This document shows positions 38,200-43,189 of a stretch of DNA of 64,000 nt, piece after piece. The stretch comes from an uncultured Clostridia bacterium (GTDB taxonomy: Bacteria; Bacillota; Clostridia; Christensenellales; CAG-917). Position 1 is the stretch's first letter, and the number at the start of each line of letters is the position of its first letter. A model generated the notes under the pieces. It saw nothing but the letters and a program-made list of their open reading frames with translations. It had not been told where the DNA came from and made no database searches. Made by a program: the position numbers and the translations under genes. The stretch covers positions 10,240 to 74,239 of the forward strand of contig CAKQMI010000002.1 in NCBI GenBank assembly GCA_934254835.1, given 5' to 3'.

Positions 38200-38961
38200 T
38201 TATTTTTTGCGCTGTACACCGTTGTTGTCGATAGTGTAGTTTTCTCGAAATACCAGTTCGTCAATCGACACCGCTTTGTATCCGTCAGCCTTTAAGCGCG
38301 GAAGTATGATTTTGAGCGCGTCCAAAACGTGGTCGCTGTTGTTGTGGAAAAGGATTATCGCACCGTTTTTGAGTTTCGGGATAACCCTGCCCGCAATCTG
38401 CTCGCCCGAAAGTCCTTTCCAGTCAAGACTGTCGATGCTCCACTGCACGCCCACCATATTTTTTTCGTTCACGACGCTCAAAAGTTTGTTGTCGTACTCC
38501 CCAAACGGCGGACGAAAATATGCGGGCGTTTTTCCCGTCAAGTCCCTTATTCGCTCGTTTACGCTGTCGATTTCCTTATTTATCTCGTCTTTCGACAGTT
38601 TGCTCATGTGCAAGTGGTTGTTGCTGTGATTGCCGATTTCAAGCCCCGCGTCCGCAATCAACTTGGTTTCTTCGGGGTATTTGTCAATCCAAAATCCCAC
38701 CAGAAAAAAGGTGCCGTCCGCGTCGTATTTTTTAAGCAGGTCGATTATACCTTTGGTTTTGTCCGCGCCCCACGCAGCGTCGAAAGTCAGCGCGACAACC
38801 TTTTCTTCGGTCTCCACCGAGTACACCGGCACCAGCCGTTTTTCGGACGCAAGATATACGGGCGCAACCCCGCCCACAGCCGTCACCGCAACAAGAAGCA
38901 CCGTAATTACCGCAACGAAAACCGCCTTCAACACGTCGTTCTTTTTCACGACAATAAACAT
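38200..38961 (-). CDS. Polysaccharide deacetylase (NodB homology domain; PdaA/PdaB-like)
   Basis: Start set at ATG 38961, preceded by GAGG-N5. N-terminal TM helix, then LTFDAAWG, HSNNH and LFHN motifs. Confidence 0.85.
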   Translation of the reverse strand: MFIVVKKNDVLKAVFVAVITVLLVAVTAVGGVAPVYLASEKRLVPVYSVETEEKVVALTFDAAWGADKTKGIIDLLKKYDADGTFFLVGFWIDKYPEETKLIADAGLEIGNHSNNHLHMSKLSKDEINKEIDSVNERIRDLTGKTPAYFRPPFGEYDNKLLSVVNEKNMVGVQWSIDSLDWKGLSGEQIAGRVIPKLKNGAIILFHNNSDHVLDALKIILPRLKADGYKAVSIDELVFRENYTIDNNGVQRKK

Positions 38962-39096
38962 CTTTACCTCATCATAAATTATTTTTTTATTGATTTTTTT
39001 CGGTATTTTTGCGGATTTTGTCGATTTTTGCAAAAAAACAGCGCAAAAAAAATACCCTAAAATAGGGTACTTTCAAAATCTTGGTAATATGACTTT

Positions 39097-42000
39097 TTAC
39101 TTGAAATACTTCACTCCACTTTCAAAAATTTTGGCGTCCCACTCGCCTGCAGAGTTTTGATATAAGGTGTCGCTCACGCGCGAAAAACGAGTGACTCGTC
39201 CGTAAATCCTGCCGTCGGGACTGAATATTCCGTCAACGGCGTTTGCGCTTCCGCACGGATTGAACGGAGTTTCCACAGTCGCGTTGTCGTTCAGGTCAAC
39301 GTACTGCCCCGCAATTTGCCCTTTGACGATAAGCGCGTCCATCAGTGCTTTGTCGGCGACGAACCGTCCGCTCTCTTCTGCGATTTGCGCCTTGAAAATA
39401 TCGCCCGTTTTCACGCCGTTGAACCAAGGCGAAAGGTTGCTTGTCACCCTTATTCTCCTGATTCCGCACGTTTTTTTCGCGCCGATATTGTCAATCAGCG
39501 ACGCCTTTATAAACTTATCGTCCACAAATTTTCCGTACGGCAACAATCCTGTTTTAAGGAGGGTATTAAAGCCTTGTGCGACGCCCAAAATAAGTCCGTC
39601 GCGGGACAACAATTCCTCAACGGCACGCTTAATTTCGTCAAGCGTAAACAGCGCGTCCATCAACAAATTTCCGTCCGATAACAACAAAATTTGGCAATTT
39701 TTCAACGTTTTTGCAAATTCTTCGGCATTTTTTGTAAAATCTTTTTCGTCGGTATCTTTCAAAATCAGCGTTTCGGTGCGCGCGCCCGCCACCTTAAATC
39801 GCCTTATCGCCTCGGCATCGTACGTCGTGTCGAACACCGGCATAAACACCTTTGGACGGGACACCTGAAAACCGCAGACTTTCTTTTTTGTGAAACTTAT
39901 CCCGAGGTTTTTCGTAAAACCTTCGCAGTACGTTTCGGTGGGGAATGATTTTTCAAAGGTTGACGAGTACGCTTTTGTCACGGCGTCGGCGCGTAGGGAC
40001 GCGTCGTTTATGATAAATTTCGGCACGTCGGTGACTTCGCCGACTTCCGTCAAAAACTTCCCGAATCCGCTTTCCCCTTTTTCCAAAATCAGTATATCGC
40101 CAAAATCGTTTTGGAACAAGGTTTCGTCAACAAACCCCGTCATATACAAGCCCATTCCGTTGCCTATTGAGGATTTTATCGCCGACACGACCACCCCGCC
40201 GTCTTTTACGACGGTTGCCGAATCGAGCGCGCCTTGCTTTGCAAGTTTTTGCACAATATCAAAGTATCCGCTTATTTTTTCAAAGTCCCACACGCCCGCG
40301 GTCTTCAAAGGAATTCTCAAAAGCCGTCCTTTTTTTGAAAACGTCGCGCCGACAATGGCTTTCATCGACGAAAACGCCGTCGCCGTCACCGTAATAACGT
40401 TGGTTTTTGCGGATACGATCTCGACGTCCGACACGGACACGCCCAAGTTTCTTGCGACGGTCATCGCGCCCAAAAGAGCGAGTTTCGCTTTTTCAAAGTC
40501 GTCCGTTTCGACAAAAATCGACGTTGTTTTGTCGGCTTCCGCGCCCGACGCGACAAGGCTTGAAAGTGCGGTAATTTGTGCGTCGAACCCGCCCGAAAAG
40601 TCGCACTCTCCGCTTGCCGAGGCAATCACTGCCCCGACGCCGTCTTTGACCTTAGTGACGGTGACGTTTTCTTTTGTCAGACGGTACTTTCCGCCGACGT
40701 TGTCAAACGCCGTTGACTTGCCGTCAAAGGTATCGTCAAGTCCCGCTTTCCCCGCGACATTAGGTTTTGTGAGTTCGTACAAGACGCCCTCTCTTTGACG
40801 GTCGGCGTTTATAAGTCCCGCGGTAATTTTATCGACAGGTTTAATATCGTATTTGATTGTATTTTCGGAAATTTTTGTGTTTTCGTTTGTTTTTTCAAGC
40901 AAAATTGTATTTTTGAAAACAGTTTTGCCTTTGATTTTTATCGTGGTTTCGTCGTTATTTACGCTTCCGATTTCGACGGCGCAAATATTTTCCGCCCTCA
41001 ATATCTTGATTAAGGATTTTGCGTTTTCCGTCACAACGAAAAGAGAGTTTTCAAGCATGCGTTTTGCGCTTTCGAACTCGACTTTTTTGAGGTCGATATC
41101 CACGCCGATATTTAAGACGTTTTGAAGATTATCGACAAAAGAAATTATCCCTTTCGCATCTTCGTTTTCAAAAACACGTTTGAGCTTGAACAGAGTTTCG
41201 GGTGCGCCGAAAACGTCCGCCGAAAGCAAAAGTACGGCGTCGCCTTTTTTAACGTCCGCAAAGTCAAGTTTTTTCACGCCCGCAACCGCAACGCTTTGCC
41301 CTGCGCCGACAAAACCATTCGCTATAAAACTTTCGTGCGACGCCGAGATATTTGCCTTTTCCAAAAACTCAGCCGTCCTTTTGGCGTTTTCAAGCGCAGA
41401 AAAACAACTTTTATTGTCCTTTGAAAAATACGACGTAACGACAGCAGACACCGGGACGTACCCTTTTGAATACGCTTTCAAAACAGCGGACACGGCATTC
41501 CCCGAAAAGGTTTTAAGGGTAAGTTTTTCACCGTCGTCGATTTCTTTTTCTATTGCGGTTTTTTTGAAAACTTCTTTGTTTTCTTCGATTTTTTTTGAAA
41601 ATTTAATGTTATCTGAGGAAATTTTTGCAACGTTTTCATCAAATAGATTGTCCAAAAATCCGACGTTGGTTTCTGTTTTTTCACTAAACAATCTTTTTAT
41701 TTCTTCTTCGATATTCTTTTCGTCGCACTCGGTTTCGGCGCGCTTAAATCGCACGTCAAGCGCACTTTTCAATGCGTCCTCGTCATCTTTTTTCACGCCG
41801 TATACCATGGCGATTTTTGCGCATTTGACGGTCACGTCCTCGCCCGTTGCGACCTTCACCGCCCTTTCGTACCTTTCGTTTTTGGCATTTTCGCACTCGT
41901 ACACAAAAACTTTGGCGTCGCTCGTGTCGACGCTTTCATAGATGTCCGTCGAAAATCCGTCGAAAAAAAGCCCCTTGCACTTTTGAAAGCCGTCATCGGA

Positions 42001-42138
42001 CAGCCCGAAAATCTCAAAACGAGAAAACTCAAGAAGCCCGTCGGTGCAAACCCCGCTTGCGGAAACGACTTTTGAAAGGGTGTCCCGAGACAGCGCGTCA
42101 AAGCCCTCTTTTTTTGCGCAATAGAACTTTCTTTCCAT
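39097..42138 (-). CDS. Degenerate paralogue of large phosphoribosylformylglycinamidine synthase (PurL-like, glutaminase triad lost)
   Basis: 1013 aa from ATG 42138, preceded by GGAG. The N-terminus RKFYCAKKEGFD resembles the clostridial PurL start. The C-terminal 250 aa align with the PurL glutaminase domain, but GVAQGFN replaces G-x-C-N-G-x-Q, IAEESGRF replaces the xHGEGR block, and VTRFSRV replaces the xHPER block. No ETHNHP-type or DxGAGGLS-type synthetase motif was seen. Confidence 0.7.
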   Translation of the reverse strand: MERKFYCAKKEGFDALSRDTLSKVVSASGVCTDGLLEFSRFEIFGLSDDGFQKCKGLFFDGFSTDIYESVDTSDAKVFVYECENAKNERYERAVKVATGEDVTVKCAKIAMVYGVKKDDEDALKSALDVRFKRAETECDEKNIEEEIKRLFSEKTETNVGFLDNLFDENVAKISSDNIKFSKKIEENKEVFKKTAIEKEIDDGEKLTLKTFSGNAVSAVLKAYSKGYVPVSAVVTSYFSKDNKSCFSALENAKRTAEFLEKANISASHESFIANGFVGAGQSVAVAGVKKLDFADVKKGDAVLLLSADVFGAPETLFKLKRVFENEDAKGIISFVDNLQNVLNIGVDIDLKKVEFESAKRMLENSLFVVTENAKSLIKILRAENICAVEIGSVNNDETTIKIKGKTVFKNTILLEKTNENTKISENTIKYDIKPVDKITAGLINADRQREGVLYELTKPNVAGKAGLDDTFDGKSTAFDNVGGKYRLTKENVTVTKVKDGVGAVIASASGECDFSGGFDAQITALSSLVASGAEADKTTSIFVETDDFEKAKLALLGAMTVARNLGVSVSDVEIVSAKTNVITVTATAFSSMKAIVGATFSKKGRLLRIPLKTAGVWDFEKISGYFDIVQKLAKQGALDSATVVKDGGVVVSAIKSSIGNGMGLYMTGFVDETLFQNDFGDILILEKGESGFGKFLTEVGEVTDVPKFIINDASLRADAVTKAYSSTFEKSFPTETYCEGFTKNLGISFTKKKVCGFQVSRPKVFMPVFDTTYDAEAIRRFKVAGARTETLILKDTDEKDFTKNAEEFAKTLKNCQILLLSDGNLLMDALFTLDEIKRAVEELLSRDGLILGVAQGFNTLLKTGLLPYGKFVDDKFIKASLIDNIGAKKTCGIRRIRVTSNLSPWFNGVKTGDIFKAQIAEESGRFVADKALMDALIVKGQIAGQYVDLNDNATVETPFNPCGSANAVDGIFSPDGRIYGRVTRFSRVSDTLYQNSAGEWDAKIFESGVKYFK

Positions 42139-42259
42139 AAAAACTCCAAAAAATAATATAAACATATTTTATTATCTAAAATATACTATGTCAATGAAAA
42201 CTTAACGCAAAAACAATTTCGTTGACAAAACGCCGACGGTATTCTAAACTGAAATCATT

Positions 42260-43189
42260 ATGATTGACGTATGTTTCGGAATATTGATGGATTTGTTGAA
42301 AACACGCAAGGTTACGGCGCGGTACTTGTCCGACAAGTACGAAATATCCATAAGAAGCGTTTATAGGTATATCGACGTTCTGTCGGCAAGCGGAGTGCCC
42401 GTATTTACCGAGCGCGGACGAGGCGGTGGCGTGACGATTGCCGACAATTACCGCCTGCCCGCAACTCTCCTCACAAAGGACGAGCAAAGCGACGTCTTGT
42501 CCGCCCTGTCCTTGTACAAAGGCGCAAACCCCGCGCGCGACGTGGACGCAATCCGTGACAAACTGCTGTCGGTCAACACCTCGGACGACGCAAAAAGCCT
42601 GATTATGTCGGGCGACAAACTTATCCTCGAAGGCGTCATCGGCGACGAAAAACTTTACCGCGCCAAAATCGAACCGCTGTCGAAAGCCGTGGACGACCAA
42701 AAAAAGGTCACCGTGGTTTATCACGACCGTGGCGGTGAAATCACGACGCGCACAATCCACCCGCACGCCTTTGTCCTCAAGGACTTCATCTGGTACGTCT
42801 ATGCTTTTTGCGAACTTCGGCAAAGTTTCCGTATGTTCAAAATCAGTCGTATCGAGAAGTTGAAAGTCACGGACGAGTCGTTTGACAGAAAATCGCGCGA
42901 CGAGTTCACCCCGTGGAATTTGTCCCCCGAAACGTCGCAATCGATAACCATTCTTTTGTACGTCAAAGAGGAGGCGCGCTACGGCGTCGAGGAGTGGCTG
43001 GGCGTTGAGTGCGTCAAACCGCAAAAAAACAAGTCGTTCCCTTACGTCGCCTCGTCGCAGGTCGCTTTTGACGACACTCTTATCCCCAAGATTTTGTCGT
43101 ATGGCTCGGCGGTCAAGGTGCTGGAACCGCAAAGTCTTGTGAAAGATATCGTCGCGTCCGCGCATAATATAAGTACTCTTTACGACTGA
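42260..43189 (+). CDS. YafY-family transcriptional regulator (HTH + WYL domain)
   Basis: 309 aa. The N-terminal HTH (KVTARYLSDKYEISIRSVYRYIDVLSASGVPVFTERGRGGG) is typical of DeoR-like/WYL regulators. A central WYL-like segment reads FIWYVYAFC. Confidence 0.85.
   Translation: MIDVCFGILMDLLKTRKVTARYLSDKYEISIRSVYRYIDVLSASGVPVFTERGRGGGVTIADNYRLPATLLTKDEQSDVLSALSLYKGANPARDVDAIRDKLLSVNTSDDAKSLIMSGDKLILEGVIGDEKLYRAKIEPLSKAVDDQKKVTVVYHDRGGEITTRTIHPHAFVLKDFIWYVYAFCELRQSFRMFKISRIEKLKVTDESFDRKSRDEFTPWNLSPETSQSITILLYVKEEARYGVEEWLGVECVKPQKNKSFPYVASSQVAFDDTLIPKILSYGSAVKVLEPQSLVKDIVASAHNISTLYD

Follow-up and report, generated by a model that had tools for sequence, protein, structure and literature searches.

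The large PurL protein, phosphoribosylformylglycinamidine (FGAM) synthase, possesses a glutaminase triad which in the Salmonella enzyme consists of Cys1135, His1260 and Glu1262. In xenologous operon displacement, the displaced genes are normally lost altogether. Pseudoenzymes of the PurL/PFAS family have so far been described in herpesviruses, namely the vGAT or vFGARAT tegument proteins of the gammaherpesviruses (ORF75, BNRF1), which are PFAS homologs without the triad, do not complement purine synthesis and act on host immunity, in part by recruiting active PFAS (PMC7605207). No bacterial PurL pseudoenzyme was found in the searchable literature. The subject here is a gene at 39097..42138 (minus strand) in a 64,000-nucleotide stretch of DNA from an uncultured Clostridia bacterium of CAG-917 (GCA_934254835.1, contig CAKQMI010000002.1, positions 10,240 to 74,239 of the forward strand), referred to below as the window. 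The gene, here called the relic, codes for 1013 aa plus a stop codon and is a full-length homolog of clostridial large PurL of the TIGR01857 type; it is probably a dead but maintained relic of the PurL of a displaced pur operon. The window's genome (G000) is a metagenome-assembled genome (MAG) of 1.51 Mb in 54 contigs with a completeness of 80%, and all genomes compared with it are likewise MAGs.

Like the clostridial large PurL (TIGR01857; references 1T3T and human PFAS 9NB3), the relic has collinear homology over its full length, a predicted four-domain fold and the ancestral purL position. Unlike it, the relic reaches 300 bits against a cut-off of 1057, has lost the triad, ETHNHP, DFGAGG, the GRDGCGGATGSS loop, GGKDSMSG and PGGFSGGDEPDGSGK, is about 225 residues shorter and no longer lies within a pur operon. 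With the vGAT proteins it shares the state of a large PurL/PFAS homolog devoid of the glutaminase triad, which would be kept for a role outside purine synthesis. The viral proteins are captured host genes, whereas the relic is a bacterial chromosomal gene which appears to have died in place after operon displacement, and a similar relic is present in genomes in which no PurL was found; the two are compared here at the level of shared PurL ancestry. As in xenologous operon displacement, a phylogenetically distinct (type I) pur operon is present and the native (type II) operon appears dismantled, but here one of the six displaced genes stays intact under selection.

Catalytic motifs and predicted fold

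For the comparison of motifs, the relic was aligned with clostridial PurLs, among them the canonical PurL of its own genome. The nucleophile elbow GICNGFQ reads GVAQGFN in the relic, with Ala854 (codon 39577..39579, minus strand) at the position of the nucleophile Cys. In the sister clade of relics the elbow is GVGQG or GVGHG against GVAQG in the window, and a G-x-C-x-G elbow with the catalytic Cys was not encountered. The SHGEGR block reads AEESGR, its His being replaced by Glu921, and GHSER reads TRFSR, so that the triad His and Glu correspond to Arg984 and Ser986 (codons of Arg984-Phe985-Ser986 at 39181..39189, minus strand). When the relic is aligned to Salmonella PurL (1T3T) with HMMER, this Arg and this Ser again fall opposite His1260 and Glu1262. 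In a profile-profile comparison (hhalign), the relic family and canonical PurLs align collinearly from end to end (probability 100, E-value 4e-98), with no triad position shifted and no motif rescued.

The synthetase part has been altered to a similar extent. KNETHNHP reads KEIDDGEK, GGKDSMSG reads VSDVEIVS, and the blocks DTYWSDHCRHTTF, GRDGCGGATGSS, (ND)FGAGGVSVAIG and PGGFSGGDEPDGSGK are deleted, GRDGCGGATGSS being the glycine-rich loop of the A1-B1 half in canonical PurL. The canonical residue is kept in 85 of the 346 columns that are at least 95% conserved among canonical PurLs. The initial annotation, a reading of the sequence by eye, had claimed that all three glutaminase catalytic residues are replaced, that the xHGEGR block is altered and that the ETHNHP- and DxGAGGLS-type motifs are missing; each of these observations is borne out, and the manual alignment behind them is not shifted, as HMMER and hhalign both keep non-catalytic residues at the triad positions. 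Because the triad and all recognisable ATP- and formylglycinamide ribonucleotide (FGAR)-site motifs are lost, the relic should be unable to make FGAM. Retained are the glutaminase domain-interface motifs RDGL.LG, SPW, NP.GS and SPDGR, and within the relic family a number of Cys and charged residues do not vary, among them C54, C512, C755, C815 and C891.

Profile searches give a matching picture. With Pfam, the relic matches GATase_5 (PF13507) only, with 107.8 bits against a gathering score of 27 (residues 761-1012), and there is no Pfam match to AIRS, AIRS_C or the FGAR-AT linker. TIGR01857 gives 299.6 bits against its cut-off of 1057 and covers profile positions 543-1239 only, the genome's own canonical PurL scoring 1846 bits as a control. 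Among Pfam and NCBIfam, no family other than PurL matches the relic. The score, the triad, the ATP/FGAR-site motifs (ETHNHP, DFGAGG, GRDGCGGATGSS loop) and the A2 GKDS, which mark the large-PurL equivalog of FGAM synthase, are all lacking. Judged by its sequence, the relic is outside this equivalog, and what it has in common with it are the fold and, at the level of domains, GATase_5.

Four domains can be assigned along the protein, all on the minus strand. The N-terminal, PurS-like domain (aa 1-135, 41734..42138) aligns to the canonical N-domain and has a ratio of nonsynonymous to synonymous substitution rates (dN/dS) of 0.06-0.25. It is followed by a degenerate linker and the A1-B1 region (aa 136-430, 40849..41733), the former catalytic half of the synthetase, which has lost ETHNHP, DFGAGG and the GRDGCGGATGSS loop, has no Pfam match and has a dN/dS of 0.23-0.41. 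The A2-B2 region (aa 431-755, 39874..40848), the structural half of the synthetase in which GGKDSMSG has become VSDVEIVS, has a dN/dS of 0.17-0.23, and the dead class-I glutaminase domain (GATase_5, aa 756-1013, 39100..39873; 108 bits with Pfam) one of 0.04-0.17.

An AlphaFold2 (AF2) model of the relic has a mean pLDDT of 80 and a pTM of 0.82; the parts of low confidence are mostly residues 133-155 and 412-423. A Foldseek search of the PDB matches the model over its whole length to Salmonella FGAM synthetase (1T3T) and human PFAS (E-values 1e-43 to 1e-45, TMq 0.73-0.78), the value for 1T3T being 0.78. Matches to half-domains include small PurL, ThiL, HypE and SelD. The four-domain PurL fold is thus very probably retained in the predicted structure, in agreement with the earlier proposal that the fold had been kept.

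Origin of the relic

The slot of the relic holds a pur operon in a related genome. In G001, which belongs to the same genus, the space between the WYL regulator gene and the polysaccharide deacetylase gene pda contains purE, purM, purH, purD, a canonical purL of 1242 aa and the radical-SAM gene ygiQ. The order in G001 is therefore a divergent WYL gene, then purE-purM-purH-purD-purL-ygiQ-pda and so on to sepF-lspA-rluD, and in G011 (genus g10) it is purE-purM-purN-purH-purD-purL-ygiQ-pda-ssb-yggS-sepF-lspA-rluD. In the window, a divergent HTH-WYL-WCX regulator (42260..43189, plus strand), the inherited neighbour of the ancestral pur operon, is followed by relic-pda-ssb-yggS-sepF-lspA-rluD. The pda gene (38200..38961, minus strand) is the first of a conserved downstream block (pda, SSB-like, yggS, sepF, lspA, rluD), and in relatives ygiQ lies between purL and pda. 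Relatives of the relic (57-60% identical, 1015-1016 aa), which come from human-gut and other metagenome assemblies, share the arrangement of a divergent WYL gene, relic, pda and genes for a tandem-OB SSB-like protein, YggS, SepF, LspA and RluD. The region with a sigma-70-type promoter before the relic (TTGACA-17-TAAAAT, 42166..42194, minus strand) aligns with the region before purE in G001, the two promoters being homologous, and the sister relic clade has the same junction.

In maximum-likelihood trees the relics fall within the clade of the G001 and g10 PurLs (support 100/100), next to the PurL of G001, and their stem is very long, at about 1.8 substitutions per site. The canonical PurL encoded by the same genome belongs to another clade, together with those of genera g15, g9, g2, g4 and g6, and the approximately unbiased (AU) test rejects the relics and this PurL as one clade (p 2.5e-6). 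The tree and this test rule out a recent duplicate of the genome's own PurL. The pur genes of G001 look vertically related to those of g10, with which they are 64-79% identical; for the neighbouring genes the identity is 49-70%. A foreign origin by composition was also considered and rejected, as the GC content is barely below average and both synteny and phylogeny show a native origin. The relic is the positional descendant of the purL of the lineage's original (type II) operon and not a duplicated paralogue, so that of the "PurL paralogue" first proposed the homology to PurL stands and the duplication does not.

The reading of the relic as a pseudoenzyme was open to the objection that the genome might have no other purL. 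A search of the whole G000 assembly with TIGR01857 found a canonical PurL of 1237 aa (1846 bits) on another contig, C16. It is encoded in an operon with the order purE-purC-purF-purM-purN-IMP cyclohydrolase (PurO type)-AICARFT (purH')-purD-purL, followed by pyrC-carB-pyrK-pyrD-pyrF-pyrE-pyrB, and this type I pur operon is closest to those of genus g15 and related MAGs. The pur genes of C16 are 44-60% identical to those of G001 and 53-74% to those of a g15 genome, while its pyr genes are 55-79% identical to their G001 counterparts, as compared with 68-79% for the flanking genes on the window's contig. No pur operon adjoins the pyr operon of G001. The composition of C16 is typical of G000 (tetranucleotide r 0.992, GC 0.469), and the exact relic and the exact canonical PurL occur together in two independent assemblies (ERZ27286948 and ERR7746113). 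Because of this composition, the likeness of the pyr genes to those of G001 and the co-occurrence in two assemblies, the relic and the canonical PurL very probably belong to one organism, and a binning artefact is an unlikely explanation of C16. PurLs which are 81-82% identical and have the same pur-pyr arrangement are found in human-gut (Hadza) MAGs. For the sister relic clade (L003/L005), a search for the relic and a type I operon in one genome gave no demonstrable link.

Two further features of C16 should be mentioned. At G000:C16 21100-22400 and 17600-20900 (L020, L070), pyrC is directly followed by carB. In G001, a carA of 372 aa lies between carB and pyrC; tblastn with it found nothing in the 80%-complete G000, and the related contigs L024 and L070 lack it as well. 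The glutaminase subunit of carbamoyl-phosphate synthetase has possibly disappeared from this lineage. Upstream of the type I purE there is an ORF of 184 aa with a WCX domain only (G000:C16 34588..35142; L070 1071..1625), the G001 homolog of which is 331 aa in length and lies near pyrC; the ORF resembles a shortened regulator of the WYL family, situated at the border of the inserted pur operon.

Taken in order, a native type II pur operon would have occupied the slot of the relic first. A second, phylogenetically distinct type I pur operon would then have come to adjoin the pyr genes and taken over de novo purine synthesis, after which purE, purM, purN, purH and purD together with the downstream ygiQ would have been deleted. 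In this scheme purL alone was left, with the old pur promoter directly before it, and the takeover, the deletions and the new position of the promoter would all date to an ancestor which the window's species shares with a sister species. Freed from catalysis, the old PurL would have evolved very fast and lost the triad and all recognisable ATP/FGAR-site motifs. It would nevertheless not have been lost, with its four-domain fold kept and purifying selection acting most strongly on the A2-B2 and dead glutaminase module.

Relics and canonical PurL across the family

Among 108 representative genomes of the family, the relic family occurs in that of the window only, and none besides turned up when GTDB contigs were scanned by pattern. 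Its N-terminal 430 aa match their own family only among 1.84 billion representative proteins. A genome of the same genus, G002, which consists of a single contig of 1.5 Mb and is recorded as 81% complete, matched neither PurL nor the window's YggS, and is either a very different genome or reflects a data problem in the record.

Dead PurL-like proteins were also found in two other genera. In G014 (genus g13) there is a relic of 934 aa with a GMGGGF elbow, neither His nor Glu at the triad positions and a TIGR01857 score of 99 bits. Its ORF lies in the same slot, between an ABC-F ATPase gene and ygiQ (L077 5285..8089 = G014:C26, minus strand), and the genome has a separate canonical PurL of a third lineage on C12. 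Genus g16 has relics of 770 aa in G017 (L091 8366..10678 = G017:C26, plus strand) and 754 aa in G026 (L090 4626..6890 = G026:C28, plus strand), both situated between an ABC-F gene and the block pda-ssb-...-rluD. These have GVGGGF without the Cys, and only A2-B2 and the glutaminase domain are recognisable in them, with residues 234-770 aligning to canonical positions 640-1249. Their frames are intact at 48% identity, against 74-80% for the neighbouring genes, with a dN of 0.49 and a saturated dS of at least 2.2. A search of the g16 genomes, which are 97-98% complete, found neither a canonical PurL nor a PurM.

The tree joins the relics of all three genera (g1, g13 and g16) with a support of 100/100, and the AU test disfavours a clade of the window's relic with G001 (p 0.016), though the relic branches are extremely long and this test shares the long-branch pull of its model. 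In 346 canonical-invariant columns, no derived residue is common to the three relic lineages and the pairs of lineages share 3, 9 and 7; loop deletions differ in length between the groups. By its flanking proteins, G001 (68-79% identical) is closer to the window's genome than g16 is (57-61%). The long branches, the near absence of shared derived residues and this closer relationship of G001 argue for separate origins of the relics. Whether single or separate in origin, a dead PurL is, on sequence grounds, conserved in three genera, in one of which no purine pathway genes were found.

Of the 108 family genomes, 59 yielded a canonical PurL; the search gave none for 32 of the 52 g15 genomes, for most of those of g12 and for all of those of g8 and g16. 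The genomes that have it carry at least two deeply separated types of PurL and pur operon. The pattern suggests that purine synthesis has often been lost and replaced in these gut genomes of 1.1-1.9 Mb.

Maintenance and possible function

The relic has a dN/dS of 0.21-0.24 in five pairs of species or strains ranging from 96% to 58% amino acid identity, as compared with 0.02-0.28 for neighbouring genes. Every domain of the relic has a dN/dS below 0.42, with the dead glutaminase lowest and A1-B1 highest. A frame of about 1015 codons is open in both relic clades at a divergence of 34% in nucleotides and 42% in amino acids, and in simulation a neutral random substitution of 5% closes the frame in more than 99% of runs. 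The relic is under purifying selection, which is strongest on the A2-B2 and glutaminase module.

Putative expression signals lie on both sides of the gene. The longest frame at the locus is 39097..42165 (minus strand). The start MERKFY is common to 13 of 13 close relatives and corresponds to the ATG at 42138, which has a ribosome-binding site GGAG five nucleotides ahead of it (42144..42147, minus strand), while the upstream ATG at 42165 is placed before the likely transcript start, as the promoter ends at 42166. The 1013-aa product is thus the right one, since the start in relatives, the GGAG and the promoter position all fit the ATG at 42138, and the coordinates given for it at the outset are upheld. 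Directly 3' of the stop codon there is a hairpin with a U-run resembling an intrinsic terminator (39045..39074, minus strand; dG -14.1 kcal/mol, z -2.7), which was missed by a consensus terminator scan; given this hairpin, the relic may form its own transcription unit. A permissive Rfam scan of 38900-42400 for a riboswitch or leader gave no match.

Two further remarks of the initial annotation concern the gene's setting. The gene was said to be A/T-rich compared with its neighbours, which is marginally true (GC 46.5% against 47.4% for the window; GC at third codon positions (GC3) 54% against 58-67% in neighbouring genes). It is indeed transcribed divergently from a WYL regulator, but a functional link does not follow from this, since the WYL gene also flanks the intact operon in G001. 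A connection to a defence system through this regulator was likewise rejected: PADLOC has no match to the relic, the WYL protein matches generic WYL models only and the same WYL gene flanks the intact G001 operon.

As far as can be judged from its sequence, the relic fits the definition of a pseudoenzyme, having the homology and fold of an enzyme family, no catalytic residues and a gene that is maintained. The initial proposal of a pseudoenzyme whose fold is kept for a non-catalytic role is supported by the lost residues, the predicted fold, purifying selection and the canonical purL elsewhere. The mode of action is most likely the binding of a protein or small molecule and not catalysis, and the role is probably independent of FGAM synthesis and of active PurL. 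It is probably not one of assisting an active PurL, because g16 has kept a similar relic in genomes that yielded neither a canonical PurL nor a PurM. A further step, put forward tentatively, is that in this family of small-genome gut Clostridia type II PurL has a second, non-catalytic function in its A2-B2 and glutaminase module, of enough value for the dead protein to persist in front of the pda, SSB-like, yggS and sepF block whenever purine synthesis is displaced or abandoned. This may have happened in at least three genera and possibly independently, among them genomes that yielded no purine pathway genes.

Several points weigh against the relic being a maintained dead PurL of a displaced operon. 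Its rate of evolution is 3-8 times that of its neighbours (58% identity as compared with 81-93%), so that the constraint on it is moderate, and the alignment given to AF2 included canonical PurLs beside the relics, which pulls the model towards a PurL fold. G000 is a MAG with a completeness of 80%, and it is composition and co-occurrence, in place of a closed genome, that put the relic and the type I operon on one chromosome. A contig of 6.1 kb (G104:C81, L058) in a MAG of genus g15 is 95% identical in DNA to the purL-purD part of G000:C16; the remainder of the 20-kb stretch of C16 that was searched (C16:12000-31999) has no match in the G104 genome, and the contig is probably either a mis-binned fragment, derived from an organism related to that of the window, or the result of a recent transfer. 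The binding role is arrived at by exclusion.

Other explanations of the relic can be set against the same data. The dead PurL could be a regulatory or scaffolding partner which binds type I PurL, other pur enzymes or purine intermediates and tunes the flux in the manner of the vGAT proteins. The relic still lies behind the ancestral pur promoter and keeps its glutaminase domain-interface motifs, a canonical PurL coexists with a relic in both G000 and G014, and there is the viral precedent (PMC7605207). The g16 relic is kept at the same slot where neither canonical PurL nor PurM was found, which speaks against such a partnership unless that relic is of other function or origin, and the explanation is considered unlikely. 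It is rather more doubtful still that the scaffold has become a new enzyme with a different active site and an unrelated reaction. This would accord with purifying selection on all domains and with the invariant Cys and charged residues of the relic family (C54, C512, C755, C815, C891), but no active-site motif of the PurM superfamily or of GATase is left, PurL alone is matched among the Pfam and NCBIfam families, and the three relic lineages have almost no derived residues in common, with none shared by all of them in 346 columns.

That the relic is a non-functional remnant, with a frame open by chance or only since stops would be polar on the essential genes downstream, appears highly improbable. 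Its evolution is much faster than that of its neighbours, its GC3 is below theirs and its partner genes have been deleted, as would be expected of a remnant. A dN/dS of about 0.2 is a constraint at the level of amino acids which polarity alone does not explain, the frame survives a nucleotide divergence of 34%, and the relics of g13 and g16 are intact too. A frame kept merely to avoid polarity is further weakened because the terminator-like hairpin follows the stop codon, and the downstream genes need not depend on translation of the relic.

The reading of the locus as a dead PurL kept in place after displacement of its operon has consequences for annotation. Relics of this kind are labelled 'phosphoribosylformylglycinamidine synthase' or 'PurQ' by automatic annotation, and metabolic models built on such labels would wrongly credit human-gut MAGs, for example those of g16, with purine prototrophy. 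With an intact ancestral state in a congener, an identifiable replacement operon, a dead copy under selection and relics in sister genera, the locus is an unusually clean natural experiment, and it makes testable the question of what role a PurL scaffold has when it no longer makes FGAM. Should type II PurL indeed have a second function, the relics would point to moonlighting by PurL that has yet to be described, for instance in metabolite sensing or in the physiology of the cell envelope or of division.

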